From positions 95,049 through 159,048 of the forward strand of contig CAZZLY010000001.1 in NCBI GenBank assembly GCA_964655175.1: a stretch of DNA of 64,000 bases. Direction: 5' to 3'. This document shows, piece by piece, positions 21,529 to 52,486 of this stretch. Position 1 is the first letter of the stretch. Each line of letters starts with the position of its first letter. The translations under genes and the position numbers were made by a program. The notes beneath the pieces are model-generated. The model saw only the letters and a list, made by a program, of their open reading frames with translations. It had not been told where the DNA came from and ran no database searches. This DNA is from an uncultured bacterium. Lineage in GTDB: Bacteria; Eisenbacteria; RBG-16-71-46.

Positions 21529-21529
21529 C

Positions 21530-25582: not shown

Positions 25583-25673
25583 GTCGGGGACAGCGGGAAC
25601 GACCGCCACCTCGACGGTGTAGACTGGTGGAGTCGCGAGGGTCGTGGTGGACCGGGAAGAAAGGACCTGCGGG

Positions 25674-35937: not shown

Positions 35938-35963
35938 CCGGGGCCGGGGGGCGGACGCGACAA

Positions 35964-35992
35964 GGCCCCGCGGGTCGGTGACCCGCGGGGCC
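35964..35992. terminator. Bidirectional hairpin terminator between convergent genes
   Basis: GGCCCCGCGGGT-CGGTG-ACCCGCGGGGCC perfect 12-bp stem. Confidence 0.6.
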
Positions 35993-36011
35993 TCGCGTGT
36001 GTTCGAGCCGC

Positions 36012-38672
36012 TCAGCGCGTGATGCGGTAGATGCGTCCCGTGCTCGCCGGGAGGTCCAGCTTCACGGTGCCGCTCCACGACTGCGCCGCGCCACCCTCGA
36101 GGGCGTCCACCGCGCGGACCGTGCCGCCCAGCACGCTCGCGTCGAAGCTCACCTGCGCGGGACCGCGGCCGGCGTTGAGCACCACGACGAACTGCGACTG
36201 CGCGTCACGACGCAGGAACGCGAACGTCTGGCCCTGCGTGGCGAGGGTGCGGAACTCGCCCGTGCGCAGCGCCGCGTTCTGCAGGCGCAGGTTGGCGGCC
36301 TTCGTGTAGTAGGCGTGCACCGCCACGCGCTTGGGATCCTTCTCCCAGTCCCACGGGAACGGGCGCCGGCAGTCGGGGTCGCGCTGACCCTCGAGCGCGA
36401 CCTCATCGCCGTAGTAGATCGCCGGGGCGCCCACGTAGGTCATCTGGAACAGGGCCGCCAGCAGCAGGCGGCTCACGTCACCGTTCGCCTGCGTCAGGTA
36501 GCGCACCGTGTCGTGGCTGTCGATCAGGTTCATCTGCACCGCGACCGACTGGCGCGGGTACGTCAGACGGCCGGTGGCGAGCGCCGCATCGAACTCGGCC
36601 GCCGTGCCCTGGCCGTTGCACAGGAACTTGAGCACCGGGTCACGGAAGAAGGCGTAGTTCATGACCGCGTCGTACATGCCGGGCTTCACGTAGTCCGAGG
36701 CGTTGCCCCACAGCTCGCCCACGATGTAGGCGTCGGGCTTGACCTTCTTGACGCGCTTGTTGAACAGCTTCCAGAACCAGAAGGGCACCTCGTTCGGCAC
36801 GTCGAGGCGCACGCCGTCGGCGTCGGCCTCCTTGAGCCAGTACTCGGTGGCGTCGAGCAGGTAGTTGACCAGTGCGACGTTGGGCTGCGCGTCCTTCACG
36901 TCGCGGACCGGGATCTCGGCCTTGTCGTCGCGCGACAGGTCGAAGTTCAGGTCGGGCAGATCGCCGAAGCCCCACCAGCAGTTGTAGTAGTCGCCGGGCT
37001 TCCAGGCGTAGCCCACGTTGGGCCAGCCCTGCGGGAGCGGATACTGCTTGAAGGTGAACCAGCTGTAGTAGGGCGAGGCGGGCCCCTTCTCGACGGCGTC
37101 CTTGAACGCCCAGTGGGCGTTGCCGCTGTGGTTGAACACGATGTCGAGGATGATGCGGATGCCGCGCGCCTTGGCCTCCTTCGCGAACGTCTTGAACTCC
37201 TCGTTCGTGCCGAAGTGCGGGTCGATCTTGCGGTAATCCGCCGCGTCGTACTTGTGCGTCGACTTGGCCTCGAACAGCGGATTGAAATAGATGATGGTCA
37301 CGCCGAGCGACTGCAGGTAATCGAGCTTCTGGCGGACGCCCTCGAGGTCGCCACCGTAGAAGGCCATCCAGTCGCGGCGATCGTTCGTGTGCGGCGCCTG
37401 CGTGAGCGCGGCGACATCGTCCCACTTCACGAGGTGGTAGTACTCCTGGAAGTCGGTGTTGATGCGACCCGAGGCGGGCAGGGTGCGCTTGCCCTCGTAG
37501 TACCACTCCTTGAAGTCGGGGTCGTTCGCCGGGTTCCCGTTGCGGAACCGGTCGGGGAAGATCTGGTAGATGATGCCGTTCTTGACCCAGTCCGGCGTGA
37601 CGAACGCGGGGAAGCGGCTGCTGTCGTAGGTGAACGCCTCGCCCTTGGCGCGCGTCGTCGACAGACCCTTGGGGCCCAGCCACGGCCCCGGCGTGCCGTC
37701 CTGATACTGGAACACGTACTGCGCGCCCTCGGGCAGCTTCACCTCGGTGCGGAAGTAGTCGTACACGCGATCGCGCTCGACCGGCGTCATCGCCACGCGC
37801 GTCTCGGTGCCCCCCGGCGCCCACCAGATCAGGTCCACGCCGGTCACGTCGTCGAGGTGCGCGCGCGTGGTGAGCTCCACCAAGCCGCCGCCGAGCGCGT
37901 TGAGTTCCTGCGCGCCCTGCGTGTGCTCGACGCCGTCGGGGAAGACCTTGCCGTCGCCGCGCTTCACTTCGATCGCGGCGAAGCGCTCGTCCACGTTCTT
38001 GATCGAGTTCTTGCCGCCGAAGCCGTCCTCGGCCTCCGCGTCCTGCCCGGCGGTGTCCTGCGTCCAGCCGTTGGAGTTCACCACGAACTTGTACTGGTAC
38101 GACCCCGGCGCGAGCAGCAGGGTGGCCGTCCACACGCCGTCGCCATCGGCGTCGCTCATGGGCGTCTTGCCCACGGTCCAGTCGTTGAACGTGCCCGCGA
38201 CGCACAGCGCATCGGGCTTACCCGTGGGGCGGAACGAGAACGTCACGGTGCGCAGGCCCAGCTTGGGCGCATCGGCCTTCTTGAGCGTGGTGCCCTGGCC
38301 CAGCGTGACCGGCTGGTCCTTGAGCGTGGCGACGGCGTTCTGGCCGCCGAAGCCGTCGGACGAGGTCTCGACGGCGTTGTCATCGGTGAACCACTGATCG
38401 CCGTTGACGACGAACTTGTACTCGATGCGGCCGGCCGGCAACTCGAACGTGGCCGACCAGATGCCGTCCTTGTCGGCATCGGCGAGCGGGTTCGCGGTCG
38501 CGTTCCAGCCGTTGAAGCTACCGGCCACTGAAACGGCGTTCACGCCGCCGATGACGGGCTGATAGCGGAACGTGACCTTGGCCGCCGAAGCGAGGCCCGT
38601 CATGCACGCGAGCAGCACGGGCACGAGGGCGAGGGCGAGGCGCGCGAGGCGCTTGGGGGTGCTGGACCGCAT
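36012..38672 (-). CDS. Secreted multi-domain GH13 alpha-amylase/neopullulanase-like enzyme with several N-terminal glycogen-binding (CBM48/AMPK-GBD-like) modules
   Basis: Start ATG at 38672 (AGGAGA RBS) with signal peptide MRSSTPKRLARLALALVPVLLACMTGLASA; repeated …GSFNGWN…YKFVVNG…W..D..N…DGFGG.N modules; GH13 core …GGDLEGV…LDYLQSLGVTIIYFNPLFEA…, …RIILDIVFNHSG…, …GVRLDVPNEV…. Confidence 0.85.
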   Translation of the reverse strand: MRSSTPKRLARLALALVPVLLACMTGLASAAKVTFRYQPVIGGVNAVSVAGSFNGWNATANPLADADKDGIWSATFELPAGRIEYKFVVNGDQWFTDDNAVETSSDGFGGQNAVATLKDQPVTLGQGTTLKKADAPKLGLRTVTFSFRPTGKPDALCVAGTFNDWTVGKTPMSDADGDGVWTATLLLAPGSYQYKFVVNSNGWTQDTAGQDAEAEDGFGGKNSIKNVDERFAAIEVKRGDGKVFPDGVEHTQGAQELNALGGGLVELTTRAHLDDVTGVDLIWWAPGGTETRVAMTPVERDRVYDYFRTEVKLPEGAQYVFQYQDGTPGPWLGPKGLSTTRAKGEAFTYDSSRFPAFVTPDWVKNGIIYQIFPDRFRNGNPANDPDFKEWYYEGKRTLPASGRINTDFQEYYHLVKWDDVAALTQAPHTNDRRDWMAFYGGDLEGVRQKLDYLQSLGVTIIYFNPLFEAKSTHKYDAADYRKIDPHFGTNEEFKTFAKEAKARGIRIILDIVFNHSGNAHWAFKDAVEKGPASPYYSWFTFKQYPLPQGWPNVGYAWKPGDYYNCWWGFGDLPDLNFDLSRDDKAEIPVRDVKDAQPNVALVNYLLDATEYWLKEADADGVRLDVPNEVPFWFWKLFNKRVKKVKPDAYIVGELWGNASDYVKPGMYDAVMNYAFFRDPVLKFLCNGQGTAAEFDAALATGRLTYPRQSVAVQMNLIDSHDTVRYLTQANGDVSRLLLAALFQMTYVGAPAIYYGDEVALEGQRDPDCRRPFPWDWEKDPKRVAVHAYYTKAANLRLQNAALRTGEFRTLATQGQTFAFLRRDAQSQFVVVLNAGRGPAQVSFDASVLGGTVRAVDALEGGAAQSWSGTVKLDLPASTGRIYRITR

Positions 38673-38743
38673 GCTTCGTCTCCTGCTCGCAGGGGGGCGG
38701 CGAGTCTGGCTCGGGGAGGTCCCGGCGGGTGCCGGGGCCGGGT

Positions 38744-40132
38744 TCACTTCACGACGAGGACGGAGTTGAGACCGCCGAAGTCGTCCTCTTGAGTGGTCTT
38801 GTTCGCGACGTCCGTCTTCCAGGTCTTGCCGTCGATGAGGAACTTGTACGTGTGCGTGCCGGCGGGCAGCTTGCGGGTGACCGTCCAGGTGCCGTCGGAC
38901 TGCTGCGTCATGGGGTCGGTGTTGATCGCCCAGTCGTTGAACGAACCGCACAGGGCCACCGACGAGCCGGGACCGGCATACGTGAACGTCACACCCGCGG
39001 CGGCGATCTGCGGCGCGCGCGGGCTGCCCGTGACCTTGATCGCGCTCGCGACGGGCGCCGCACCGGCCCCTGCGGTACCCGCGACGACCATGATGGCGTT
39101 CTTGCCGCCGAAGCCGTCGTCCACGGTCTCCTTGGCGGTGGGGTCTTCCTTCCAGTTCGAGCCGTCCACCACGAACTTATAGGCGTAGCGGCCGGGCGCG
39201 AGCTTCTTGGTGATCGACCAGACACCGTCGGCGCCCTTGGTGAGCGCATCGGCGCTGGTGCTCCAGCTGTTGAACTCGCCGGCGAGGTTCACCGAGTTGG
39301 CGGCCCCCGCGTAGCGGAACGTCACGCCGTCGCCGGTGACGGTGGAGCCCGCCGACTTGGCGGCTGCGGGCGCGGCCGCGGCGGGAGCGGCGGTGCCGCC
39401 CACGACGACGATGGCGTTCTTGCCGCCGAAGCCGTCGTCCACGGTCTCCTTGGCGGCGGGGTCTTCCTTCCAGTTCGAGCCGTCCACGACGAACTTGTAG
39501 GCGTAGCGACCGGGCGACAGCTTCTTGGTGATCGACCACGTGCCATCGGCGCCCTTGGTGAGCGCATCGGCGCTGGTGCTCCAGCTGTTGAACTCGCCGG
39601 CGAGGTTCACCGAGTTGGCGGCCCCCGCGTAGCGGAACGTCACGCCGTCGCCGGTGACGGTGGAGCCCGCCGACTTGGCGGCTGCGGGCGCGGCCGCGGC
39701 GGGAGCGGCGGTGCCGCCCACGACGACGATGGCGTTCTTGCCGCCGAAGCCGTCGTCCACGGTCTCCTTGGCGGCGGGGTCTTCCTTCCAGTTCGAGCCG
39801 TCCACGACGAACTTGTAGGCGTAGCGACCGGGCGACAGCTTCTTGGTGATCGACCACGTGCCATCGGCGCCCTTGGTGAGCGCATCGGCACTGGTGCTCC
39901 AGCTGTTGAACTCGCCGGCCACGTTCACCGCGTTGCCCTCGCCCTTGTAGCGGAACGTCACGCCATCGGCGGACACCGCCGAGCCAGCGGCAGGGGCTGC
40001 CGCGGTCGCCGTCGGGGACGCGACGTCGTCACCGGCCCACTGCGGCGGGACACCGTTCCGCCAGCCACCGGCGCAACCCAGGGCGGGCAGGAGGAGGGCG
40101 ACGAGAGCGAGGGAGCGGAACGCGCGGGTCAT
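38744..40132 (-). CDS. Probable lipoprotein composed of four tandem glycogen/starch-binding (CBM48/AMPK-GBD-like) domains
   Basis: Signal/lipobox-like MTRAFRSLALVALLLPALGC; four repeats of …GVTFRY.G…V.LAGEFNSWS…YAYKFVVDGSNWKEDP…DDGFGGKNA…, three of them nearly identical. Confidence 0.8.
   Translation of the reverse strand: MTRAFRSLALVALLLPALGCAGGWRNGVPPQWAGDDVASPTATAAAPAAGSAVSADGVTFRYKGEGNAVNVAGEFNSWSTSADALTKGADGTWSITKKLSPGRYAYKFVVDGSNWKEDPAAKETVDDGFGGKNAIVVVGGTAAPAAAAPAAAKSAGSTVTGDGVTFRYAGAANSVNLAGEFNSWSTSADALTKGADGTWSITKKLSPGRYAYKFVVDGSNWKEDPAAKETVDDGFGGKNAIVVVGGTAAPAAAAPAAAKSAGSTVTGDGVTFRYAGAANSVNLAGEFNSWSTSADALTKGADGVWSITKKLAPGRYAYKFVVDGSNWKEDPTAKETVDDGFGGKNAIMVVAGTAGAGAAPVASAIKVTGSPRAPQIAAAGVTFTYAGPGSSVALCGSFNDWAINTDPMTQQSDGTWTVTRKLPAGTHTYKFLIDGKTWKTDVANKTTQEDDFGGLNSVLVVK
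39092..40069. repeat. Tandem direct repeat, period 318 bp (106 codons), three near-identical copies plus a diverged fourth copy (38747-39091), all in-frame within the 4xGBD lipoprotein gene
   Basis: Nucleotides 39322-39567 are identical to 39640-39885 (overlapping antisense-frame ORFs give identical peptides); protein repeats identical over ~100 aa. Confidence 0.8.
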
Positions 40133-40989
40133 GGCAGTCTCCTGGTCGGGATCGACCGAGCCGGTGCGGCGGCACGCAGGGCCGCGACGCCGGGGGCGTG
40201 GTACTCGGTGATGCTGATGCTGAGGCGGCGCTCGTCGAAGACGAACGCGAACGTGTCGGTCGTGGCGAAGTGCACCACGAGGTCGGTGGCGGGCGTGGTG
40301 CCGAAGCGGGCCGGTGCGTCGGTGAACGGCGCGGACAGCGTCTGCGAACCGTCACCGCCCCAGCCGATCAGGTTCCCGATCGTCGAGGAGGCGTCGGTCA
40401 CGAACTTGAGGCGATAGGTGCCCGCGGCGATCGTCGGCATGGGGGAGGCGTACAGGTTGTAGTCGTTGTCGAGCCGCCACAGGCCCGCCGACGTGCCGAT
40501 GCACAGCGTCGTGAACGTGAGGAGCTCGTCGGGCGAGTAGCCCGGCATGGTGCCGATGACGAACACGTTCGAGGCGAGCGAGTCGGCCGTGTTGGCGATG
40601 AGCTTGAGGTCGCCGGCGTCCCGCGTGCGATCCACGACGCGGAACGGCCCGTACGCGCGCGGCGAGAACGCGTGCGAGCGCGCCACCAGCCCGTAGTCGC
40701 CGGGCTTGAGGCGGGCGAACGTGAACGCGGGCGAACCGGGCGTCGTGAGGGTCTCGGCCACCACGAGGCCCCCCTGCGTCATCTGGACGCGCACGGGCGG
40801 GAACGGGGCGCGGTCGAGCCCGGGGTAGGCCGTCGTGTCGAACACCACGACCCCGGTGAGTCCCCCGGTCGGCACCGCGGGCGCGGGGCGGATCCCGGTG
40901 GGCACGAGCACCTGACCCTTCTCGTTGCGACCGCAGCCGACGAGAGCGACGAGCAGGGGGAGCGTGAGCCACAGCGAACGTGCACGCAT
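40129..40989 (-). CDS. Lipoprotein of unknown function (candidate surface glucan-binding protein); true start at ATG 40989
   Basis: MRARSLWLTLPLLVALVGC lipobox; co-directional and overlapping (ATGA-type) with neighbouring glucan-binding genes; no recognisable catalytic motifs. Confidence 0.6.
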   Translation of the reverse strand: MRARSLWLTLPLLVALVGCGRNEKGQVLVPTGIRPAPAVPTGGLTGVVVFDTTAYPGLDRAPFPPVRVQMTQGGLVVAETLTTPGSPAFTFARLKPGDYGLVARSHAFSPRAYGPFRVVDRTRDAGDLKLIANTADSLASNVFVIGTMPGYSPDELLTFTTLCIGTSAGLWRLDNDYNLYASPMPTIAAGTYRLKFVTDASSTIGNLIGWGGDGSQTLSAPFTDAPARFGTTPATDLVVHFATTDTFAFVFDERRLSISITEYHAPGVAALRAAAPARSIPTRRLP

Positions 40990-41003
40990 GGTCGGACTCG
41001 ACC

Positions 41004-41408
41004 TCACCGGACGTCCAGCAGCGAGTTGAAGCCGCCGAAGCCGTCGTTGGTGCGGTTGGGGTTGTTCGGGTCTTCCTTCCAGTTCACGCGATCGATGACG
41101 AACTTGTACTGGTAACGCCCCGCCGGGAGCCGCTCGGTGCGCGTCCAGATGCCGTCGCCATCCTCGTCCTTCATCTCGCCGACGAGGAACGACCCCGTCT
41201 GGGCCTGGCCCGCGAGCCACTTGTTCTCCGGCCAGTCGCCCGCCACCTGCACGACCTTGGCGCTCGGGGCCTCGAAGCGGAACGTCACGCCCTCGGGACC
41301 GGCGGTCGGCGGCGGGAGGCGGCGCTTGATGAAGTTGAGCGTGCTGCAGCCCGCGACCAGCGCCAGCAGCGCGAGCGCGGTGAGGATCGGACCGAGGGGA
41401 CGACGCAT
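41004..41408 (-). CDS. Small lipoprotein with single glycogen-binding (CBM48/AMPK-GBD-like) domain
   Basis: MRRPLGPILTALALLALVAGC lipobox; …GVTFRFEAPSAKVVQVAGDWPENKW…YQYKFVIDRVNWKEDPNN…DGFGGFNS…. Confidence 0.7.
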   Translation of the reverse strand: MRRPLGPILTALALLALVAGCSTLNFIKRRLPPPTAGPEGVTFRFEAPSAKVVQVAGDWPENKWLAGQAQTGSFLVGEMKDEDGDGIWTRTERLPAGRYQYKFVIDRVNWKEDPNNPNRTNDGFGGFNSLLDVR

Positions 41409-41439
41409 GTCGGGACTCCTTGGCGGCGGTGCGTGAGAA

Positions 41440-43749
41440 CTAGAAGTGGACGATCGCCTGGATCTGGATGCGCTTCTCGTTCATGAGTGCGCGCTCGGCG
41501 GCGGCGATCTGCGGGGCGAGGGACAGGTAGTCGGTCTCGGCGACGAAGCCGTTGGCGTTGCGCGCCTCGAGGTAACGCTCGCGTCCGAGCGGCGCGTACT
41601 CGTTGGTGATCGGGTCGAGCACGTTCGGGTCCACGCCGAAGCCCAGCGACAGTTCGATGCCGGGCGCCCAGCGATAGGTCGCGTCGGTGAAGAAGTCCAG
41701 ATAACCGCGTCCCAGCCCCAGCTCGGGCGTGTCGTACTTGACCCAACGCAGGTCGTGCTCGATGCGGATGGGGCGATTGAGGTCCCAGCCCAGCGTGAAC
41801 ACGGACTCGGCGTAACGGGGCTGCGTGCCCAGATGCACGCCGGTGAAGTTGCCCTTCCAGGCGAACGAGCCCTTGCGACGGGGCGCGAACGGGATCTCGA
41901 GCGAGGGGCGCACGCGCACCACGTCGGACTGTCCGAGCACGGTGAGGCGATCGGGGCCGACCAGCGAGCGCCCGCTCTCGAGCCAGAAGTTCCCGGTCGG
42001 GAACCACATCTGATACTCCCACGCGGTGCGCGGGTCGTACTCGAAGTGCGTCACCTCGAGGTCGAGCGTGGTCTTGACCTCACGGTCGAGGTAATACCGC
42101 CAGTTGCGATCCCAGCCCAGCGTGAACGTCGTGCGGGCGTTGTCGAGCTGCAGGAACGGGTCGTCCACCTGCGCGCGCTGGAACTCGACGTTGAGCACGC
42201 GCGGATGGTCGTCGGGCGGCAGGCCCGCCGGGATGATCGGCGACTGCGCCCACGCGGGATAGCGGTGCGTCTCGCGCTCGATCGTCGCACGCAGGCCGAT
42301 GTCGCCCTGCGCCAGCGTCCACGCGGCACCCAGATGCAGCTTGTCGCTCGCATCGGTGGTGAAGTGCTGCCCGTCGGCGAGCGTCGAGCCGAGACTCGAG
42401 AAGCCCGTCGCCCCGGTGGCGGCGATCGCGGACGCCTTCCAGCGCTCCTCGGTCGCGCCGTTCACCAGGTTCAGGCGACGCGCGCCGAACAGCGCTTCGG
42501 CGTCCAGACGCAGCGTGCTCGACGGCTGCCAGCGGAGCGTGCCGCCGAGGCCGTACCACTGCTGCGTCGTCTGGCCGCTGCGCACGCGGACGACGCTGTC
42601 CGAGACAGGCTCGGCGAGGACGAGCCGACCCAGCTGGAAGCCTCGATCGGTGCGCCCCAGCACGCTCGCGCGCAGGCCGCGACCGAGGTCGCGCGCCACG
42701 CGCAGGGCGAACGTGTTCTCGTTGCCGTCGCCGTACCCGAACGCCTTACCGTTGTCGCCGAAGTCGGTCGCCGACACCTTGGCGAGCTGCTGCGTGCCGA
42801 GCCGGAACCCGGTCGTGCCGCGCTCGGCGGCGAGCAGGGCGAGCGCCTTGGCGGTCGCATCCCCCTCGAACACGAAGTCGGGCAGGGGCTGGCGCGTCAC
42901 GGTGAAGCCGGGGAACGTCGTACCGCCGGCCTCGAAGTTGTCCGTGTAGAGCAGTTCCGTCTCGAAGCCCGCCTGCGGCGTGCGGAACTGGAACCCCTGG
43001 CGCTGGTAGCCGAACGGCCGCGCGTACGGTCCGATGGCGCCGACCAGATGGAACGGGTCGTCCCAGTCCGCGATCGTCTCGCTGTCGAACGCGTACAGGG
43101 ACATGCCCGGCGTGGTCATGGTCAGGCTCCCGCGCTTGAAGTTGAGGCGGCTGCGGAAGTCCTGCCCCGTCTCGTTGCGCGGATTCAGATTGGTGAGCAT
43201 GTGACCCGTGAGTGCATCCGAGAACCGCACGCCGAAGCCCAGGTCCACGTCCATCTCGGGACGACGCAGTTCGTAGCGCGAGTAGGCGGGCGTGTAGAAG
43301 CTCTGGTACAGGCCGATGATGCGCCCGTCGATGAGCACCTTGGGGCTGTAGGGGGTGTTCGAGGTGGCCTTCTGCGTGACGAGTTCGCCCTTGGCGTCCA
43401 CCGTCACCACGCTGTTGCCGAACTCGCCCTTGGTGGCGCCGTTCTCGGGATCGGCGAACCACTGGCCGTCGACGACGAACTTGTAGGTGTGCTCACCCGC
43501 CGGAAGCGCGAGCGTCACGCTCCACAGGTCCCCCGTCTTCTTCATGGGGTTCGCGCTCGAGTTCCAACCGTTGAACTCGCCGGCCCACGCCACACTGCCG
43601 GCGTTGGCGTCGCGATAGGTGAAGCGGATGCCGCCCGCGGCCTTCTCGGGGGCCGCGTGCGCAGGGGAGGCGAGGGCGAGCGCCACGAGGGCGGCCGAGA
43701 GCGTCGCCGCGAGACGACGGAGCGGACGGACGAGGACGTGGGCGCGCAT
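41440..43749 (-). CDS. Outer-membrane beta-barrel protein with N-terminal glycogen-binding (CBM48-like) domain
   Basis: Signal peptide MRAHVLVRPLRRLAATLSAALVALALASPAHA; …GIRFTYRDANAGSVAWAGEFNGWNS…HTYKFVVDGQWFADP… GBD; >650 aa of alternating beta-strand-like sequence rich in G/Y/F/W/N, C-terminal …QIQAIVHF (terminal aromatic). Listed 1293-aa ORF 41440..45321 is two genes; ATG 43747-43749 shares its A with the upstream gene's TGA stop. Confidence 0.7.
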   Translation of the reverse strand: MRAHVLVRPLRRLAATLSAALVALALASPAHAAPEKAAGGIRFTYRDANAGSVAWAGEFNGWNSSANPMKKTGDLWSVTLALPAGEHTYKFVVDGQWFADPENGATKGEFGNSVVTVDAKGELVTQKATSNTPYSPKVLIDGRIIGLYQSFYTPAYSRYELRRPEMDVDLGFGVRFSDALTGHMLTNLNPRNETGQDFRSRLNFKRGSLTMTTPGMSLYAFDSETIADWDDPFHLVGAIGPYARPFGYQRQGFQFRTPQAGFETELLYTDNFEAGGTTFPGFTVTRQPLPDFVFEGDATAKALALLAAERGTTGFRLGTQQLAKVSATDFGDNGKAFGYGDGNENTFALRVARDLGRGLRASVLGRTDRGFQLGRLVLAEPVSDSVVRVRSGQTTQQWYGLGGTLRWQPSSTLRLDAEALFGARRLNLVNGATEERWKASAIAATGATGFSSLGSTLADGQHFTTDASDKLHLGAAWTLAQGDIGLRATIERETHRYPAWAQSPIIPAGLPPDDHPRVLNVEFQRAQVDDPFLQLDNARTTFTLGWDRNWRYYLDREVKTTLDLEVTHFEYDPRTAWEYQMWFPTGNFWLESGRSLVGPDRLTVLGQSDVVRVRPSLEIPFAPRRKGSFAWKGNFTGVHLGTQPRYAESVFTLGWDLNRPIRIEHDLRWVKYDTPELGLGRGYLDFFTDATYRWAPGIELSLGFGVDPNVLDPITNEYAPLGRERYLEARNANGFVAETDYLSLAPQIAAAERALMNEKRIQIQAIVHF

Positions 43750-45314
43750 CAGAAGTTCCCCTTGAGGATGAATTTGATCTGGTCGAACTGGTCGCCGTTG
43801 CCGTTGAGGTTGCCCTCGTCGACGGGCGTCGAGCCACCACCGATGTAGTCCGGGCCGTACTGCAGGAACATCTCCATGTTCCCCGTGGGCCGGTACTGGA
43901 GCTGGGTGAACAGCCCCTTGCGCAGGATGCTGGCGTCGTTGCCGAACACGAAGCGGTTGTAGACCTTCATCTTGGGCGTCAGGTTGAGCGAGTTCTCGAT
44001 CGAGAACAGCTGCTTGCGCTCGGGCTTGCCGATGTCGCGCAGCTTGCTCTGCACGCGCAGCCATGCCAGACGGCTCTCGACCTGGAGCTCGTTGAACCAG
44101 TCCAGGTGCGACTCCTTGCGCAGGATGCCGCCGCTGGGGGAGTAGACGTCGCGGCGACGGTACGAGGTCTTGCCCGTGAACCCGTTCACGAACTCGATGT
44201 AGAGCTCGTTGTACATCTCGCGCGTCGCGTTGCGGCTGAACGTCTTGTTGGAGTACGCGAGGAACTGGTTCGAGTAGGTGATCGCCCGCTCCGGCAGCAT
44301 GTAGTAGGACTGCAGGATGAAGCCGGTCTCGTCGCTCGTGGGCCCGCCGAGGGCGTTGCGGTAGCGCGGGCCGCGGCTCCACCAGCCGGGCGCGAAGTTG
44401 AGGTAGCCGACGCGCGGGTGGCCGACCTTGAGACTGCGGATCTCGGCGTGCAGCACCGAGCGGTCCGAAAGTCGGAACGGGGTCGGGGTCTTGCCGATCG
44501 TGATCGGGCCGCGGACACCGTTGCCGTTGTGCAGCGTCGGCATGCTCTCGGCGTATTCCAGCGACAGGTCGGTGTGGCCCCAGCGGTAGCGCGAATCGAT
44601 CGCCATCACGCTCGTCCAGGGCGCGGGGCCGCTGATGCTGTCGCGGCCGGTCCAGCCCTCGAAGCGGTTGTAGGTCATCCCCAAACGCAGGCGGTCGTCG
44701 CGGAAGAAGTTGCGACGCAGGCGCATGACGTACATGTCGTCCGTGCGCAGCTCGCGCTGCGCCGCGATCGAGTCGCGCGGGATGACCGGATCGCTGCCGC
44801 TGAAGTCCTGCGGATTGAACTGACTCGACTGGTCCGCGACGATGAACGTGGCGTTGGTCTTGAAGAAACCCCACGTGTCGAGTCGCACGCCCTGCCCGTC
44901 GCCGCGGCCGTTGGTGATGTTGATGAGGTAGGAGTCCACCCAGAAGCGGTCCTGCCGCGAGAACAGATAAGCGTCGAGGCCGCGCTTGCCCATCTCCTTG
45001 CGGAATCGCAGATGCGATTCGCGGTACTGGAACTCGGGGCGCGCGCCGTTGTTGTCGTTGGGATGCCACTCGGCCTCGACCTTGAGGAACGCCTCGACGC
45101 CGCCGCGGGGCTGCGTGAACAGGCGCAACTGCGCGTTGTCGAAGTTGTCGTACGAGTTCGAGTCGAAGTTCCACGGATAGGCGCGGTTGTTCTTGCGCAT
45201 CTCCGCCATGAGCTGGTACTCGCCCTCGAGCTTGGTGACCGCGCGCGCGACCGTCGGCCATGCCGACAGCACCGCGAGGGCGAGCAGGGCGAGGGCCTTC
45301 CGACGCCGGATCAA
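43749..45314 (-). CDS. Outer-membrane beta-barrel protein (porin-like, ~520 aa)
   Basis: Signal peptide MIRRRKALALLALAVLSAWPTVARA; beta-barrel-type composition, C-terminal …IKFILKGNF; no TonB-box/plug motifs evident. Confidence 0.65.
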   Translation of the reverse strand: MIRRRKALALLALAVLSAWPTVARAVTKLEGEYQLMAEMRKNNRAYPWNFDSNSYDNFDNAQLRLFTQPRGGVEAFLKVEAEWHPNDNNGARPEFQYRESHLRFRKEMGKRGLDAYLFSRQDRFWVDSYLINITNGRGDGQGVRLDTWGFFKTNATFIVADQSSQFNPQDFSGSDPVIPRDSIAAQRELRTDDMYVMRLRRNFFRDDRLRLGMTYNRFEGWTGRDSISGPAPWTSVMAIDSRYRWGHTDLSLEYAESMPTLHNGNGVRGPITIGKTPTPFRLSDRSVLHAEIRSLKVGHPRVGYLNFAPGWWSRGPRYRNALGGPTSDETGFILQSYYMLPERAITYSNQFLAYSNKTFSRNATREMYNELYIEFVNGFTGKTSYRRRDVYSPSGGILRKESHLDWFNELQVESRLAWLRVQSKLRDIGKPERKQLFSIENSLNLTPKMKVYNRFVFGNDASILRKGLFTQLQYRPTGNMEMFLQYGPDYIGGGSTPVDEGNLNGNGDQFDQIKFILKGNF

Positions 45315-46243
45315 CGGTCACCTCCGGGAAGCGGTGCGCGCAGGGTGATGCGATAGGAGGCGCCCAGATCGTGGTCCGTGGTCGCGGTGGCGTCCACGTG
45401 ATAGCCCCGGTGGAAGACGCCGAAGCCGCCGTTGAAATCGAGTTCGTTGGGAGAGCCCTGCGTGTCCACGATGTTCGACAGGTTCGAGACGCTCGAACGG
45501 ATCGCGAACACGTTGAAGAACGTCACCTCGATCCCGGCGCTCAGCGAGGTGCGTCCACCCGCCAGCTGCGACCAGCCCAGCGAGATGGTGGATTCACGGT
45601 TCCACCGTACCGAGGCGGCGAGTTCCTGGCGTGCCGCGAGGCGCTGGCCGCCGGTGCCGGGGATGAACTCGTAGCGCGGCTCGAGCAGGTCGCGACCGAC
45701 CCACGCCAGATCCACGCGCCACGGCGTCTCATAGAGGAGCGAGGCGTCGAGCGAGGTGCGCGACTGCCGACCGTAGTCGATCGCGGTCGCGGGCGCCGAC
45801 GGGTCGGCGAACGGCGTGAAGCCGATCCGGCCCACCTTGCCCGCCAGACCCACCGACAACGTCCCGCCGTGCGGCATGAAGTCCGGGCTCATGCGGTGCG
45901 CGACGGCCAGCGTGAACAGGTCCTCGGCGTAGCTGTCCGACAGCCCCAGATGGTGCCAGCCGGCGCCGAGGCTCACCGGGCCCACCGGAGCGGCCACCGC
46001 GATGCCACCGACGTTGAGATCCGCCAGCCCATAGGGCTTGGCGTAGTCCACCGAGGCCTCGCCGCGCGTGAGGCGGGTGAGGGCGGCCGCGTTCCAGTAG
46101 TGTGCCGAGACGTCGGACACGCTCGCGATGGAACCGAATCCCATGGCGAGTCCGCGTGCCCCGACCGCGACCTCCTCGAAGTAGGCGTGGGCGGTGGCGG
46201 CCCACAGCAGCGTCAGCGCGAGTGCCCGCGACAGCGCCTTCAT
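45311..46243 (-). CDS. Small outer-membrane beta-barrel protein (310 aa), possibly PorP/SprF- or FadL-like; function unknown
   Basis: Signal peptide MKALSRALALTLLWAATAHA; alternating hydrophobic beta-strand pattern; overlaps both neighbours by 4 nt. Confidence 0.55.
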   Translation of the reverse strand: MKALSRALALTLLWAATAHAYFEEVAVGARGLAMGFGSIASVSDVSAHYWNAAALTRLTRGEASVDYAKPYGLADLNVGGIAVAAPVGPVSLGAGWHHLGLSDSYAEDLFTLAVAHRMSPDFMPHGGTLSVGLAGKVGRIGFTPFADPSAPATAIDYGRQSRTSLDASLLYETPWRVDLAWVGRDLLEPRYEFIPGTGGQRLAARQELAASVRWNRESTISLGWSQLAGGRTSLSAGIEVTFFNVFAIRSSVSNLSNIVDTQGSPNELDFNGGFGVFHRGYHVDATATTDHDLGASYRITLRAPLPGGDR

Positions 46244-47625
46244 CGCACCACCACCACGGAACGGAGCGCACGGCTCAGATTGGGCTCGATCACGGTGCGG
46301 ATCACGTAGATGCCGGGCGGTACGATGCGGCCGCGCTCGTCACGGCCGTCCCACGCATCGCGCAGGTCGGTCTCGGAGGCCGCATCCCAGAACGAATCCC
46401 CGGGCTGGCCGCGCACGACGTTGCGCGTCTGGCCCTGATACAGCGCACGCACGAACCTTCCGCGCAGGTCGTAGACGTTCGCGGTGAGGTTGTACTGCCG
46501 CACCTTGGCGATCGGATCGGTGGGATCCAGCTTCTTGTCGAGTTCGACCCGGAACGACACCTTGTCACCGGCGTCGGGTGAGAACGCGGGGCGATCGAGG
46601 TGCACTTGGTCCGCCGCGAAGCGCAGCGCCACGACGGGCGGCTGGAACCGGAACGTGATGCGATCCTTGGGCGAGACGTTCCAGTCGGCCACGCCATCGG
46701 GGCCGGGCGCACCGTTGTTCAGCCCCGTGTCGTTGTTGCGGTCCAGATCGAGGATCGCCCAGTTGTCCAGGAACACGAGGTCGCCCGAGTTGTCCGTGTG
46801 CCCGCGCAGGTTGTCCGGGGCCGAATCGGGCCCACCGGTGCCGTCGCCGCCGGCGGTCACGACCGCGCACACCTTGATCTTGGTCCCCGGCGGGAACAGG
46901 CGGAAGGTGTCCGCGACGCCGGCCACGGTGAGGAACGTGTCGCGCGTGCCCACGCCGGCCGAGCCCAGGAACAGCGAGCGCCAGGGGATGCGCAACTCCA
47001 TGGCGCGCTCGGGATTCCCCTGCAGGAAGGTGGCGGCGGCGTTGAACGTGGCGCCGACGCGCTGATCGTCCACCTGGTTGCCCGCGATCTGGACGATGAG
47101 GCGCGGCGAGGTGTTGCCATCCCACGTGGCCGCGAACAGGTCGGGGGCGAAGCCCTTGCCCTGCGCGGTGCCGGTGGTGTCGAAGTCGAAGTTGCGCTTC
47201 CACGAGTTGAGCTGCGTCATGGACGTCAGACCACGATTGGGCACGGTGTCGAACAGCAGCACCATGTTGTTGTCCCAGATGCGGCCCTCGCCGGCGACGT
47301 ACAGGAACTGCGCGTCCCAGGTGATGCGGATCTGGTTGACGTCCTCGTTCACGCCCCAGCGCGAATCATCGGGCGCTTCCTCTGGGGCGTTGGCGGCGTT
47401 GTTGAAGCCGAACATGGCCTCGTCGGTCTGATAGTCCGTCGTGAAGCCGTCCACGCGGATGCGCGCGGACAGATCGCGCGCGGTCACGGCGTGACCGATG
47501 CCGGGCAGCGCGAGGACGAGCGGCAGTGCGAGACAGAGGGAGCGCAGACGCACGGGAGCCCACCGGGATTGGGGAGGGAACGTGACGAACAAAGTCCAGG
47601 ACGGTGCGCATACTCGCCGTGTCAC
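46240..47625 (-). CDS. Secreted protein with CBM9/DOMON-like N-terminal carbohydrate-binding-type domain and C-terminal FlgD-Ig/T9SS-type sorting domain; start codon uncertain (signal peptide begins ~24 codons into listed ORF)
   Basis: …RLRSLCLALPLVLALPGIGHA signal; N-domain …IRVDGFTTDYQTDEAMF…QFLYVAGEG… paralogous to 48086 and 50677 proteins; C-terminal …NVYDLRGRFVRALYQG…DAWDGRDERGRIVPPGIYVIRT… CTD. Confidence 0.65.
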   Translation of the reverse strand: MTRRVCAPSWTLFVTFPPQSRWAPVRLRSLCLALPLVLALPGIGHAVTARDLSARIRVDGFTTDYQTDEAMFGFNNAANAPEEAPDDSRWGVNEDVNQIRITWDAQFLYVAGEGRIWDNNMVLLFDTVPNRGLTSMTQLNSWKRNFDFDTTGTAQGKGFAPDLFAATWDGNTSPRLIVQIAGNQVDDQRVGATFNAAATFLQGNPERAMELRIPWRSLFLGSAGVGTRDTFLTVAGVADTFRLFPPGTKIKVCAVVTAGGDGTGGPDSAPDNLRGHTDNSGDLVFLDNWAILDLDRNNDTGLNNGAPGPDGVADWNVSPKDRITFRFQPPVVALRFAADQVHLDRPAFSPDAGDKVSFRVELDKKLDPTDPIAKVRQYNLTANVYDLRGRFVRALYQGQTRNVVRGQPGDSFWDAASETDLRDAWDGRDERGRIVPPGIYVIRTVIEPNLSRALRSVVVVR

Positions 47626-47711
47626 GCGATGGGGTCAAGGCTCCCGCACCTCACCATGAGCGGCGCGTGTTCCGGCGTCCGATGGCGTGTTGAGCCCTCG
47701 CCCTGAGGTTG

Positions 47712-47742
47712 CTTGAATGCATAGATATTGCGTTGATTCAAG
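47712..47742. promoter_or_regulatory. AT-rich inverted repeat CTTGAAT-N17-ATTCAAG in divergent promoter region (candidate operator)
   Basis: Perfect 7-bp inverted repeat at 47712-47718/47736-47742 inside the only AT-rich stretch (…tgcatagatattgcgttgattcaa…) of a 460-bp intergenic region between divergently transcribed secreted-protein genes. Confidence 0.25.
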
Positions 47743-48085
47743 GACCTGCTGAACACGTCCTCGGGCTCGGAAGGACGGGCTCCCCCGCGGATCGCACAGG
47801 GCTCGCCGGCGGAACCGAGGGATGCGGGGCGGGGGGCGTCCACAGCGCGGCTTGAGCCGATGTCCGTCGCAGCGTCGCCCGCCGTGAAGGGCGGGCGAGC
47901 GGGTCCGGGTTGCCGATGCGAACCTGCAATCGGGCATTGAATCCCGGTCCTCGTCCTCTTTATTATCGGGGGCGGACTTTGTTCGTAGCACCCTCCGGCA
48001 CACTGCTCCTCGCTCATGCGCGCCCGGCCGGGCCCTGGTCGCGTCATGCTCCGTTCCATGCACGGCCCCCGGGAGACCCGCATCC

Positions 48086-50551
48086 ATGAAGAGGCTACTC
48101 GCCCTCCTTCTCGTCGCGCTGGCGTGTTCGTTCGCCGCTCAGGCGCAGGCCGCGACGCCGCAGACCATCGTCGTGGACGGTGTCAACGACTTCCTGCCGG
48201 GCAACCTGCTCAAGGACGATCGAGCGGACACGCAGAGCAACTGCGGCGTCGGCATCTACCCGATGGATCTGGGTCGCGTGTACGTCACGAACGACGCCAA
48301 CTTCCTGTACGTCGGCATCGAGTTCTCGAAGACGTGCTACTGCGACATGAACCTCGGTATGGCGATCGACGTCGGCACCGCGACCGGCGGCACCACGGAT
48401 GCCTTCGGTCGCAAGATCGGTTGGGCCAACGTGCCGTTCAAGCCGGATTGGTACCTCTACGACGTGACGCCGACGAACTGCAACTCGTTCAACTACGAGG
48501 CGATCTACCGCGACACGCTCGGCACGTGGCAGAACCGCTCGAGCCTGTTCAACCCCTCGTACAGCACCGGTGCCAACGGTCTGGGCATCGTGGACTCGCT
48601 CAACTTCAAGGAGTTCAAGCTCCCGCTCGCCACGCTCGGGGCGCCCGCGGGCACGGCGATGCACCTGGAGTTCTGGGTCACGCAGGACAGCCCCACGAAG
48701 GGCCCGCTCGACGCGCTGAGCAGCGACAACGTCCAGATGTCGCGTGCGACGACGACCACTTACGACACGACCGCTGTGGTGCAGATGACGAGCATGATCA
48801 CCTACACCGTGCTCAACGCCACCGACAACGCGCCGCCGACGCTGCTCTCGGCGGAGGCGGTGGGCTTCGCGGTGCAGGCCAACAAGCAGTTCGGCCTGCT
48901 CACCACCAAGGTGGACGTCAAGTTCAGCGAGCCCGTCGATCTGACGAGCGCCCAGACCGCGGCCAACTACGCGTACTCCGGTCCGGCGCCCGCGCGCACG
49001 ATCACGAGCGCGGTGCGTGATGCCGCCGCGCCGGACATCGTGCATCTCACGCTGAGCACGCCGATCACCGCCAACGCCGCCGCGTTCGGGATCACGGCGT
49101 CGAACGTGAAGGACGTCGCCAACAACACGATCGTGGCGAACGGCGTGACCAACAAGGCGCAGTTCTTCCTGCAGAACCTGCAGTTCAACGGCAACTTCGC
49201 GCTGGGCCTGTGCAGCGGTGCGTTCACGGCCGCCGACACGTTCGCGGTCGAGGGTAGCCTCGCGCCGCTCACGTTCGGCCTCTGCGACAACGGCCTCATG
49301 TACGACGCCAACGCGGACTCGGTCTACACGCTGTCGGTGCCGTTCTCGCTGTCGCTCAACCGGGCGACGGGCAAGGGCGAGGCCGATCTCGAGTGGAAGT
49401 TCAGCAACAAGTGCACCACCTACGAGTCGCTCGCCGGTAACCGCTTCTTCCACCTCACCAGCGACAGCGGCTCGACCGCCCGCATCACGGCCGCCTGGAA
49501 CAACGACGACCCCGCGAACTACACCTCGCGTGCGGTGGACGTGATCTTCAAGGTCAACGCGGCGCTGCGGAACCCCGGTCCCGCCGACGTCATCACGCTG
49601 CTGGGGGATCGCGGTCCGCTGTCGTTCAACCAGCCCGGCGTGGCGATGCTCGACAACGGCGTCGCGCCGGATGCGGTCGCGGGCGACAAGATCTACACGG
49701 CCCGCGTCACGTTCCCCAAGTGCTCGTTCCGCACCGTGGGCTGGAAGGTCGATTTCAACGGTTCGTTCGAGTGCGCCGGCCAGGGCAACCGCACCGTGTA
49801 TCTGAACGACGCGCTCTACAGCACGACGACGCCGATCGTGCTGCCCGCGCGCGGCATCGATCGCTGCGAGGTCACGGACAAGGCGCTCACCGTGGTGTTC
49901 TCGGTGCGGGCCGACCAGTTCTACCCGCCGTCGGGCCCCACGGACACGCTGTCCATCCGGGGTGACGTGGCGCCGCTCGACTTCGGGACGGACGCGGTGA
50001 TCATGAAGGACGACGGTGCGGGTTACGACGCCCGCGCCAACGACGGCGTGTTCACCAAGGCCGTGACGTTCCCCGACTCGTCGCGCTTCAACGTCTCGTT
50101 CAAGTACTTCACGCTCGGTAACTTCGAGTGCGCGGGCTTCGGCAACCGCACGCTGACGCTCAACGACGTCACGATGGCGACGGCCACGCCGCTCGTTCGT
50201 CTGCAGGACGTGTTCGACTACTGTTCGGACCTCGCGGGCGTGGGCCCGGGCGTGCGCCCCGGCGATGCCGCGTCGTTCGCGGTGCTCCGTCCGGTGATGC
50301 CGAACCCGATCCGCCGCTCGGCGCGGTTCTCGTTCGAGCTCCACCGTCAGGGACGCGTCGCGCTCGACGTCTACGACGTCACCGGTCGTCGCGTGGCGCG
50401 CGTCGCCGAGATGGAACTGGCGCCGGGCGTGCACACCGTGGCGTGGGACGGCCGTGATTCCCGTGGCGTCCGCCTCGGAGCCGGCCTGTACGTCTACCAG
50501 CTGTCCATGGGCGGGGAGCGCGTCTCGAGCCGCCTGATCGTCACCCAGTGA
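48086..50551 (+). CDS. Secreted protein with CBM9/DOMON-like N-domain, three CBM20-like starch-binding repeats and C-terminal FlgD-Ig/T9SS-type sorting domain
   Basis: Signal peptide MKRLLALLLVALACSFAAQAQA; three repeats containing …G(D/S)..PL.FG…DG…D…YT…V.F…W/FKx.F…E(C/S)…GNR… (CBM20-like); C-terminal …VALDVYDVTGRRVARV…VAWDGRDSRG…GLYVYQL…. Confidence 0.75.
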   Translation: MKRLLALLLVALACSFAAQAQAATPQTIVVDGVNDFLPGNLLKDDRADTQSNCGVGIYPMDLGRVYVTNDANFLYVGIEFSKTCYCDMNLGMAIDVGTATGGTTDAFGRKIGWANVPFKPDWYLYDVTPTNCNSFNYEAIYRDTLGTWQNRSSLFNPSYSTGANGLGIVDSLNFKEFKLPLATLGAPAGTAMHLEFWVTQDSPTKGPLDALSSDNVQMSRATTTTYDTTAVVQMTSMITYTVLNATDNAPPTLLSAEAVGFAVQANKQFGLLTTKVDVKFSEPVDLTSAQTAANYAYSGPAPARTITSAVRDAAAPDIVHLTLSTPITANAAAFGITASNVKDVANNTIVANGVTNKAQFFLQNLQFNGNFALGLCSGAFTAADTFAVEGSLAPLTFGLCDNGLMYDANADSVYTLSVPFSLSLNRATGKGEADLEWKFSNKCTTYESLAGNRFFHLTSDSGSTARITAAWNNDDPANYTSRAVDVIFKVNAALRNPGPADVITLLGDRGPLSFNQPGVAMLDNGVAPDAVAGDKIYTARVTFPKCSFRTVGWKVDFNGSFECAGQGNRTVYLNDALYSTTTPIVLPARGIDRCEVTDKALTVVFSVRADQFYPPSGPTDTLSIRGDVAPLDFGTDAVIMKDDGAGYDARANDGVFTKAVTFPDSSRFNVSFKYFTLGNFECAGFGNRTLTLNDVTMATATPLVRLQDVFDYCSDLAGVGPGVRPGDAASFAVLRPVMPNPIRRSARFSFELHRQGRVALDVYDVTGRRVARVAEMELAPGVHTVAWDGRDSRGVRLGAGLYVYQLSMGGERVSSRLIVTQ

Positions 50552-50676: not shown

Positions 50677-51570
50677 ATGCGCAATGCGACCACGATCCTC
50701 GCGACCGGCCTGTTGCTGGCCTTCGCGGGCTCGGCGCTCGCGGCGACCGTCGACGGCACGCTCGACGGGGCCTACGGTGCCGCGCTGTCCACGCAGACCA
50801 CGCAGACCCAGTTCGGGGATGCCAACATCAGCCTGACCGACTACGCGAACGGCTCGGAGCTCGATGCCGCCTACGGTTACATCAGCGGCGGCGTGCTCTA
50901 CCTGTTCCTCGCGGGCAACCTCGAGTCGAACTTCAACAAGCTCGAGCTGTTCCTCGACACCAAGACGGGTGGGCAGAACCAGCTGCGCAGCGACAATCCG
51001 AACGTCGACTTCAACGGTCTCAACCGTCTCGCCGGCCTCAAGTTCGATGCCGCGTTCAGCCCGGATTACTACATCGGCTGGAGCGGTGGCTACGACGGCA
51101 GCGGCTACCGTCTGTTCGCCAACTGGGCCGAGCTCCTGACGGCCGGTGGCGGCGCGGGCAACTACCTCGGCAGCAACACCGCCGCGACCTCGGGCCCGCT
51201 GTCGGGCGGCACGAACCCGGACGGCATCGAGATCACGATCAACAACAGCAACGCCGGTGGCGTGGGCGGTGGCTGCTCGGCCGCCAGCGGCGCGGGCGTG
51301 AGCACGGGCGCGGAGTACGCGATCCCGCTGTCGGCGATCGGCAGCCCGTCGAGCGGCTGCATCAAGGTGCTCGCCGCCGTCAACGGCAGCGGTCACGACT
51401 ACTTCTCGAACCAGTTCGCGGCGCCGCTGCCGGCGGGCACCTGCAATCTGGGCGAGCCGTCGGTCGTGGACCTGTCGCAGATCGCGGGGGACCAGTACTT
51501 CCAGATCTGTCTGCAGACGGTGTCGGCCAAGAAGAGCACCTGGGGCAACGTGAAGTCGCTCTATCGGTGA
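50677..51570 (+). CDS. Secreted protein paralogous to N-terminal domain of 46240 and 48086 proteins (CBM9/DOMON-like); start ATG at 50677
   Basis: Signal peptide MRNATTILATGLLLAFAGSALA; …TVDGTLDGAYGAAL…GVLYLFLAGNLE…; GGAGAA RBS upstream; listed ORF begins earlier (50548) in non-coding leader. Confidence 0.6.
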   Translation: MRNATTILATGLLLAFAGSALAATVDGTLDGAYGAALSTQTTQTQFGDANISLTDYANGSELDAAYGYISGGVLYLFLAGNLESNFNKLELFLDTKTGGQNQLRSDNPNVDFNGLNRLAGLKFDAAFSPDYYIGWSGGYDGSGYRLFANWAELLTAGGGAGNYLGSNTAATSGPLSGGTNPDGIEITINNSNAGGVGGGCSAASGAGVSTGAEYAIPLSAIGSPSSGCIKVLAAVNGSGHDYFSNQFAAPLPAGTCNLGEPSVVDLSQIAGDQYFQICLQTVSAKKSTWGNVKSLYR

Positions 51571-51646: not shown

Positions 51647-52486
51647 TCAGCCCTTCACGGAGCCCAGGGACAGGCCGCTCACGATGGCCCGATTGAGCAC
51701 CACGAACAGCACCATCACCGGCACGCACACGATGAGCGAACCCGCCGCGTAGTTGGCCCATTCCGTCTGGAACTGGCCCGCCAGACTCTCGAGCCCGAGC
51801 GGCAGCGTGTACATGGGCTGCCGCGAGATGACGATGCGCGCGACCATGAACTCGCTCCAGGCGGCCATGAACGAGAACAGTGCGGTGATCGCGAGCGCGG
51901 GCGCCGCGAGCGGCAGCGTCACCTTGGTGAACGCCTGCCACGGGGTGCAGCCGTCCAGGAGCGCCGCCTGCTCGAGTTCGACGGGGATCGTCCGGTAGTA
52001 GCCGCGCATGGTCATGACGCAGAACGGCAGTGCGGTGGCGGTGTACGCCAGCGCCAGACCCGCGAACTGGTCCAACAGGTGCAGGGCGCGCAGCAGGACG
52101 TACAGCGGCAGCATGGTCATGGTGGCGGGGAACATCTGCGTGAGCAGGAACACGCTGATCATGGCGTTGCGGCCGCGGAACGAGAACCGGCTCAGCGCGT
52201 AAGCGGCCGTCGACGCGAGCGTGACCCCGAACAGCGTCACCGCGGCCGAGATCACGAACGAGTTGAACAGCCAGCGCAGGAACGGCTTCTCGAACAGCAT
52301 GACGCGATAGGCGTTGAGCGAGGCCCCGTTCGGGAGGAGCGCCAGCGAGGTCGAGTAGAGCTGGTCGTTGGGCCGCAGCGACACGGTCACGATCTGCAGG
52401 ATCGGGTACACGGTCGCGAACGTGAACAGGATCAGGAACGCGTGGACGAGCACGCGTCCGGGCGTCCAGCGCATGCGGTCGCTCAT
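51647..52486 (-). CDS. ABC sugar transporter permease (CUT1 family, MalG/UgpE-like)
   Basis: 6-TM permease with EAA-like loop (…QAALLDGCTPWQAFTKVTLPLAAPAL…); ATG at 52486 overlaps upstream permease stop (ATGA). Confidence 0.85.
   Translation of the reverse strand: MSDRMRWTPGRVLVHAFLILFTFATVYPILQIVTVSLRPNDQLYSTSLALLPNGASLNAYRVMLFEKPFLRWLFNSFVISAAVTLFGVTLASTAAYALSRFSFRGRNAMISVFLLTQMFPATMTMLPLYVLLRALHLLDQFAGLALAYTATALPFCVMTMRGYYRTIPVELEQAALLDGCTPWQAFTKVTLPLAAPALAITALFSFMAAWSEFMVARIVISRQPMYTLPLGLESLAGQFQTEWANYAAGSLIVCVPVMVLFVVLNRAIVSGLSLGSVKG

Follow-up and report, generated by a model that had tools for sequence, protein, structure and literature searches.

Textbook accounts give glycans two routes across the bacterial outer membrane: small, specific porins such as LamB, ScrY, ChiP, and CymA, or energized SusCD/TonB-dependent transporters, in which SusC is a 22-strand TonB-dependent barrel with a plug. 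How large glycans cross the outer membrane outside Bacteroidota is poorly known. Here we describe a cassette that uses neither route, from a 64,000-nt stretch of DNA (contig CAZZLY010000001.1; hereafter the window, meaning that whole stretch) of an uncultured bacterium of the Eisenbacteria. The window has a GC content of ~69%, and its proteins are identical or closely related to those of Candidatus Eisenbacteria metagenome-assembled genomes (MAGs). Eight closely packed genes on its minus strand, from ~47550 down to 36012, are designated D, C, B, A, e, f, g, and GH13. They look like a glycan-utilization locus with a new set of outer-membrane components and, apparently, an undescribed route for starch fragments without SusC/SusD or maltoporin; no description of this cassette system was found in the literature. 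The eight genes are as follows, where CBM denotes a carbohydrate-binding module and T9SS the type IX secretion system.

46240-47550, minus strand: D, secreted protein of ~430 aa with a T9SS-type (FlgD-Ig-like) C-terminal domain; start uncertain, the open reading frame (ORF) extending to 47625
45311-46243, minus strand: C, 310-aa outer-membrane barrel of the FadL/PorV/PorQ superfamily, probable anchor for D
43749-45314, minus strand: B, 521-aa plug-less barrel of ~24 strands with a signal peptide, C-terminal Phe, and TTG start
41440-43749, minus strand: A, 769 aa, comprising a signal peptide, CBM48, 19-aa linker, and barrel of ~24 strands
41004-41408, minus strand: e, 134-aa lipoprotein with one CBM48 (VAGC lipobox; AMPK1_CBM and X25 matches)
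40129-40989, minus strand: f, lipoprotein with a CarboxypepD_reg-like Ig domain (LVGC lipobox; weak PF13620 match)
38744-40132, minus strand: g, 462-aa lipoprotein with four CBM48 (AMPK1_CBM, E=3e-59, in 4 stretches; ALGC lipobox)
36012-38672, minus strand: GH13 lipoprotein, neopullulanase/maltodextrin-glucosidase-like, with two CBM48 (PF00128, E=3e-62; 2 AMPK1_CBM matches; NF008051, E=4e-109; LLAC lipobox; start read as ATG at 38672)

When the junctions were read directly, D and C were found to overlap by 4 nt (ATGA), C and B by TTGA, and B and A by one base (TGATG). The coordinates, lengths, and 1-4-nt overlaps that a sequence-only reading of this DNA had given for three tandem barrel genes (A, B, and C) were therefore correct, but the three do not make up the unit by themselves. 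One genome per GTDB species was scanned with a barrel-only alignment of A, which recovered 46 loci, most from Eisenbacteria, six from Cloacimonadota, one from Neomarinimicrobiota, and two from MAGs labelled Gemmatimonadota. Family hidden Markov models (HMMs) and jackhmmer profiles were then mapped onto the six-frame ORFs of each locus. The order D-C-B-A-e-f was present in every locus with a long enough contig: D lies upstream of C wherever there is enough flank, e directly after A, and f after e. In most loci a GH13 gene adjoins the cassette, and a homologue of the 821-aa surface protein encoded near D in the window, with the same type of C-terminal domain, flanks it. Independent gene calls and Pfam agreed with this mapping for two Eisenbacteria loci (L001 and L002, with 45% and 38% identity to A) and a Cloacimonadota locus (L044), all three of which also have MalEFG-type genes beside the cassette. 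The conserved cassette, D-C-B-A-e-f(-g-GH13), has six to eight genes in candidate phyla of the FCB group, most likely serves the use of alpha-glucan (starch, glycogen, or maltodextrin), and has the three barrel genes as its outer-membrane core; several of these uncultured phyla are common in soils, sediments, and digesters. A promoter and terminator scan of 35500-48300 performed no better than shuffles, and the operon ends are not defined by it.

The Bacteroides Sus system (SusC/SusD/SusE/SusF/SusG) resembles the cassette in being a co-transcribed starch locus with an outer-membrane barrel, several starch-binding lipoproteins, a CBM-bearing GH13 lipoprotein, and a downstream inner-membrane importer, and in belonging to the FCB superphylum. 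However, no SusC or SusD match was found among the cassette and flanking proteins scanned. In the place of SusC/SusD, the cassette has two barrels of ~24 strands, unrelated and without a plug, together with a PorV-like one; its CBM forms part of a barrel protein and probably lies in the periplasm, and proteins with T9SS-type C-terminal domains belong to the locus. A and B had been read as free of a plug or TonB motif, and profile scans of both indeed lacked any TonB-dependent signature: the plug (PF07715) and TonB_dep_Rec were absent from A and B at E<=0.01 and from 79 B and 15 A-barrel family members at E<=0.1. With no plug, no profile match, and a strand number other than 22, neither protein is a TonB-dependent transporter of the SusC kind.

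Besides its 24-strand barrel, the chaperone-usher pore (FimD/PapC) has a plug inside the barrel and periplasmic domains at both termini. B has neither the plug nor these domains, shows 12% identity and no Pfam Usher match, and resembles the usher in barrel size only. LptD-LptE and MtrB-MtrA/C, in which a partner protein sits inside a large barrel, showed no detectable homology to the cassette proteins, and a barrel filled by e or by the CBM in their manner would be pure conjecture. LamB and ScrY provide a functional parallel, since uptake here would likewise be TonB-independent and sugar-specific, along a path lined by aromatics, with a periplasmic binder giving direction; the 18-strand barrel and profile match of the LamB family were not found. 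ScrY has a periplasmic N-terminal extension that binds sugar, for which a lengthening of the sugar slide has been suggested (Dumas et al., 2000, cited in PMC6173795). Finally, in known pairs of T9SS cargo and PorV-like barrels, as here, the gene for the sorting-domain protein (D) stands directly beside that for the barrel (C), but the domain of D is FlgD-Ig-like, with no clear assignment to type A or B, and a link to sugar uptake is undescribed.

Protein A, its starch module, and its barrel

A begins with a Sec signal peptide, consisting of an N-terminal helix and an Ala-X-Ala site with cleavage between AHA and AP. The proposal that this barrel is fused to a glycogen-binding module was confirmed. 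The module matches PF16561 (AMPK glycogen-binding domain) at E=4.4e-14 (52.9 bits; cutoff 26.8) and PF02922 (CBM48) at 30.8 bits (cutoff 22.4), and it aligns with PDB structures of the AMPK beta glycogen-binding domain (E~4e-10) through its FNxW, YKF, and DGQW motifs. Among 78 homologues, W61, K89, and W96 never vary, and conservation of N111 reaches at least 90%. The carbohydrate contacts of such modules, which we take from the AMPK beta1-cyclodextrin structure, are the Trp of FNxW, the Lys of YKF, the Trp of DGQW, and a C-terminal Asn. Judged by its above-threshold profile matches and conserved contact residues, the module is a CBM48/AMPK beta glycogen-binding domain.

So that the CBM would not drive matches, a barrel-only profile of A (residues 128-769) was searched against 1.84 billion cluster representatives. 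It matched 237 proteins at E<=1e-3, with Eisenbacteria and Krumholzibacteriia among the source names, and in nearly all full-length matches the barrel begins at residue 120-150. A Pfam scan of ten sampled distant members found N-terminal starch modules in all ten, two CBM20 in one member and CBM48/AMPK modules, up to three of them, in the others; thus P0497 and P0514 from Eisenbacteria and P0434 and P0461 from a Krumholzibacteriia cluster carry two CBM20, three CBM48, or two CBM48. By these profile matches, fusion of a CBM to the barrel is obligatory across the A barrel family, and the number and type of modules are shuffled on a constant A-type barrel. Since one starch CBM family replaces another on the same barrel, this is strong evidence, drawn from family comparison, that the role of the barrel concerns alpha-glucan.

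43396-43650, minus strand: CBM48/AMPK-type glycogen-binding module of A (residues 34-118; PF16561)
41443-43344, minus strand: barrel domain of A (residues 136-769; DSSP strands)
43003-43086, 41929-42042, and 41476-41637, minus strand: conserved aromatic-rich long loops of A (residues 222-249, 570-607, and 705-758, respectively)

The ~640 residues of A beyond the CBM matched no Pfam or NCBIfam model, and a family scan of 15 A-barrel members at E<=0.1 likewise gave none. AlphaFold2 models of A and B are confident, and their structural matches are barrels only; together with the PorV/PorQ/FadL-type profile matches of C, this upholds the description of the three genes as tandem outer-membrane barrels. 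Foldseek searches of the PDB found no close solved relative of the modelled barrels (TM ~0.3), and PDB sequence searches matched A through its CBM only and B not at all. A and B each fit an outer-membrane protein inserted by the barrel assembly machinery (BAM), having a Sec signal peptide, an all-beta barrel, and a C-terminal aromatic residue that is invariant (F768 of A and F520 of B).

The topology of A was derived from DSSP strings of the model together with statistics on the length of loops across the alignment. Within the first, N-terminal third of the barrel, the connectors of strand pairs C-D, E-F, and G-H have 2-4 residues and never vary in length, whereas D-E, F-G, and H-I are joined by 7-17, 28, and 25-73 residues, respectively. 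The short connectors would be periplasmic turns, a pattern that is unambiguous in B, and the first strand would therefore begin at the periplasmic face. The C-terminal third shows a matching pattern, with the C-terminus periplasmic. DSSP gives a raw count of 25 strands, of which one (520-528) lies in a 30-residue segment, the dispensable hairpin 499-530, that is missing in about a third of the family. Because of this absence we read it as a loop hairpin, which leaves 24 core strands, and the modelled barrel would have about that number. Since the first strand would start at the periplasmic face, the CBM48 is by default placed in the periplasm; for a surface location, the low-confidence linker of 19 residues would have to thread the pore. 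We also considered the CBM as a fixed lumenal plug, in the style of TonB-dependent transporters or ushers, which is unlikely given that its copy number (1-3) and family (CBM48/CBM20) vary and that the linker is of low confidence.

The loops at 222-249, 570-607, and 705-758 are the three longest of A. Their length is invariant or nearly so, two of them are highly conserved in sequence, and twelve aromatic positions across the three are at least 90% conserved. By analogy with maltoporin, we infer that these loops fold into the lumen and form a constriction and sugar slide.

Partner barrels, D, and the lipoproteins

B shows a textbook alternation of 24 strands and consists of the barrel only, strand 1 starting directly. 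The A and B families are not detectably homologous (hhalign probability 17%), and none of 79 B family members matched a Pfam family at E<=0.1. Three periplasmic turns of B, PERA (340-343), FVNG (374-377), and SRL (413-415), are 93% conserved among 79 homologues, far above the external loops, which suggests a periplasmic docking surface or partner.

In PorV/PorQ (FadL-like) barrels, which have 14 strands, the lumen takes up an N-terminal segment. C carries a signal peptide, lacks a terminal aromatic residue, and matches the NCBIfam models PorVQ2 (E=3e-11) and PorV_fam (E=2e-7) in its N-terminal part, far under the family cutoffs (43 vs. 325 bits and 31 vs. 90 bits). All 35 sampled members of its family match NF052325 and NF033709, again far below cutoff and over the N-terminal ~70 residues only; weaker matches were to Toluene_X (FadL) in 20 of the 35, to TraF_2 in six, and to UPF0164. 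Against the PDB, the family profile matched PorV (6h3i_F) marginally, at E=0.04. From these profile matches, the best description of C is that of a divergent barrel in the FadL/PorV superfamily. A home-made counter of strands by beta-periodicity was discarded for C, as it recovered only 11 of the 24 strands of B.

The last ~80 residues of D are FlgD-Ig-like, and hhalign pairs them with the C-terminal domain of the 821-aa protein nearby (probability 88%, E=3e-6). The window copy alone gave no Pfam match at E<=0.05. In the D-family alignment, PF13860 (FlgD_ig) was matched by 15 of 24 members and CHU_C and Por_Secre_tail by three each, and in the PDB the family profile matched FlgD as well as the C-terminal domain of PorU. 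An Ig-like domain of ~80 aa with such profile matches is, at the level of sequence, a T9SS C-terminal sorting domain. In Bacteroidota, the PorZ/PorQ and PorU/PorV pairs, as well as type-B cargo with PorP/SprF, are held at the surface through retained C-terminal domains, and the genes for type-B cargo and PorP/SprF are usually clustered (PMC10202324). The order of D followed by C fits these known cargo-anchor pairs, and by this analogy C is therefore more likely an anchor for D than a third channel. Rather than a generic third channel, the 310-aa barrel would be a PorV/PorQ/FadL-type protein whose gene is directly preceded by that of a protein with a T9SS-type C-terminal domain.

The lipoboxes of e, f, g, and the GH13 protein are conserved in orthologues. 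The mature N-terminus of e, CSTLxF[IV]KRRLPP, is almost invariant in the window and in orthologues L004-L038; a basic tether straight after the lipid anchor is unusual. The PF13620 match of f is stronger in its Cloacimonadota orthologue. In g, a 318-bp tandem repeat (39084-39972; 2.8 copies, 95% identity, no indels) encodes near-identical CBM48 modules, and the duplication looks recent. An acidic surface-export motif of the Bacteroidota style was not found after the lipobox Cys of e, f, g, or the GH13 protein, a rule that may not transfer to these phyla.

A possible route for maltodextrins and its rivals

The mechanism that we favor, to which we give an even chance as a whole, is a TonB-independent passage of maltodextrins with capture in the periplasm. 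Extracellular starch would first be bound and nicked by three proteins that the T9SS delivers: the neighbouring amylase with a similar C-terminal domain, the 821-aa protein, and D, which its retained C-terminal domain would hold on C. A, probably with B, would form the passage for long maltodextrins, with the three long loops of A serving in the lumen as constriction and sugar slide. At its periplasmic mouth, the CBM48 on its flexible 19-residue linker would, together with lipoprotein e, capture emerging chains. Such capture would bias diffusion inward, and the chains would be passed to the CBM48-bearing GH13 lipoprotein, whose products would enter the cell through MalEFG. Among glycoporins, ScrY sets a precedent, with an extension that binds sugar on the periplasmic side (Dumas et al., 2000, cited in PMC6173795). 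The sequence-only reading had proposed a substrate-binding module attached to a channel as an alternative to SusC/SusD or LamB; the alpha-glucan setting outside both families stands, while a surface position of the module conflicts with the turns, which place the CBM by default in the periplasm. A bolder version would make A and B a third kind of outer-membrane glycan importer, besides diffusion porins and the TonB-dependent SusCD machinery: a TonB-independent, two-barrel, ~24-strand polymer conduit coupled to T9SS-anchored capture proteins on a PorV-like barrel, in which the tethered periplasmic CBM48 acts as a Brownian ratchet that draws long chains of alpha-glucan, or cyclodextrins, into the periplasm. 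We put this forward tentatively, as possible rather than probable.

Several points weigh against the favored mechanism. The figure of 24 strands for A requires that one hairpin of the raw 25 be discounted, and the connectors I-J (6-15 aa) and K-L (4-9 aa) vary in length more than periplasmic turns should. The side of the CBM, the occupancy of the lumen, and the pore size come from DSSP strands, loop lengths, and conservation, in models built on narrow-clade alignments. With ~180 residues in total, the loops of B look insufficient to close the lumen of 24 strands. The lipoproteins may lie exposed at the surface, as in Bacteroidota, and this would favor a Sus-like surface complex. More generally, our statements on function derive from sequence, predicted fold, and conserved gene context in an uncultured host. 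The 19-aa linker is also long enough to thread a 24-strand pore, so that a surface CBM is possible. A could then be a self-contained surface receptor and channel, a fused analogue of SusC/SusD whose surface CBM48, through a threaded linker or an unusual topology, feeds its own barrel. We consider this unlikely. The pattern of loops and turns sets the start of the first strand on the periplasmic side, the conserved loops probably fill the lumen, and members with two or three tandem CBMs (P0434, P0461, and P0497) would have to export several folded domains through the pore. To our knowledge, moreover, the N-terminal soluble domains of characterized outer-membrane proteins are periplasmic or lumenal, autotransporter passengers excepted.

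The remaining alternatives take A and B away from sugar uptake. Instead of passing solutes, A and B could act as translocons that bring the CBM48 lipoproteins (e, f, g, and GH13) to the cell surface, or as scaffolds that keep them there, much as Slam does for surface lipoproteins in Neisseria, or as in LptD-LptE and MtrB-MtrA/C, where a large barrel has a lipoprotein inside it. Four lipoprotein genes always come after A, e carries its invariant basic N-terminal tether, and the 93% conserved periplasmic turns of B suggest protein docking, all of which speak for such a role, as do a loop mass in B too small for self-plugging and the commonness of surface lipoproteins in the FCB superphylum (PMC12611786). 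Nevertheless, a glucan-binding module has no obvious role in lipoprotein export, A and B resemble Slam/DUF560, LptD, and MtrB only as generic barrels, and nothing like the acidic export signal follows the lipobox Cys, which together make this idea distinctly improbable. Less probable still is that all three barrels are type IX secretion or attachment accessories for cargo with sorting domains (D, the 821-aa protein, and the amylase), with no direct sugar role. C is PorV/PorQ-like, D and other neighbours have T9SS-type C-terminal domains, and genes for cargo are known to cluster with those for cognate PorV-like barrels; but A and B match no T9SS component model in NCBIfam or Pfam, their linkage to D and C is no tighter than that to e, f, and GH13, and the starch CBM on A would be left unexplained. 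As for a cassette that exports or anchors a self-made alpha-glucan as capsule or biofilm, A would be akin to the AlgE, PgaA, and BcsC barrels with their periplasmic N-terminal domains, which we find hardly credible beside neighbours that are hydrolases and an importer.

If the cassette is the importer that we favor, it would be a new transporter class, a metagenomic marker of starch or glycogen turnover by Eisenbacteria and Cloacimonadota, and a testable case of a binding domain that works on the periplasmic side of a channel. With the cassette come two new barrel families, both very large and plug-less, of which one is permanently fused to starch modules, and it ties them to type-IX-style surface anchoring. 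Even under another mechanism, these two families without Pfam or NCBIfam models have a firm functional context and merit curation.

Other genes of the locus

The alpha-glucan locus spans 28.7-54.7 kb of the window and includes genes for GH13, a GH77 4-alpha-glucanotransferase, the alpha-amylase with a T9SS-type C-terminal domain, a CBM20-esterase, and the MalE/F/G-type ATP-binding cassette (ABC) importer. Its main features beside the cassette are the following.

48086-50551, plus strand: 821-aa surface protein with a T9SS-type C-terminal domain (choice-of-anchor X; FlgD_ig, TIGR04183, and NF041940)
51647-54596, minus strand: MalG/MalF/MalE-type ABC sugar importer, two permeases and a solute-binding protein (BPD_transp_1 twice, SBP_bac_1, and SBP_bac_8)
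32077-34614, minus strand: alpha-amylase with a FlgD-Ig/T9SS-type C-terminal domain (PF00128 and Alpha-amylase_C)

The amylase is likely the secreted or surface enzyme of the locus. Divergent from the cassette are the genes for the 821-aa protein and for a 296-aa secreted protein without a known domain (50680-51570, plus strand), and both recur beside the cassette in many Eisenbacteria loci. A CBM20 is fused to a PF00756 "putative esterase" at 34747-35937 (plus strand), and genes of this esterase family adjoin the cassette elsewhere in Eisenbacteria, at 20091-21335 of L001, where the Esterase match alone was recorded, and at 1-1226 of L002, with a CBM20. Elsewhere in the window, a 1063-aa protein (25644-28835, plus strand) combines Peptidase_MA_2, PD40 beta-propeller repeats, and a C-terminal Omp85-type barrel, an unusual architecture for an Omp85 protein; its neighbours are a TamB-like gene (21179-25582) and a BamA-like gene (19495-21528).

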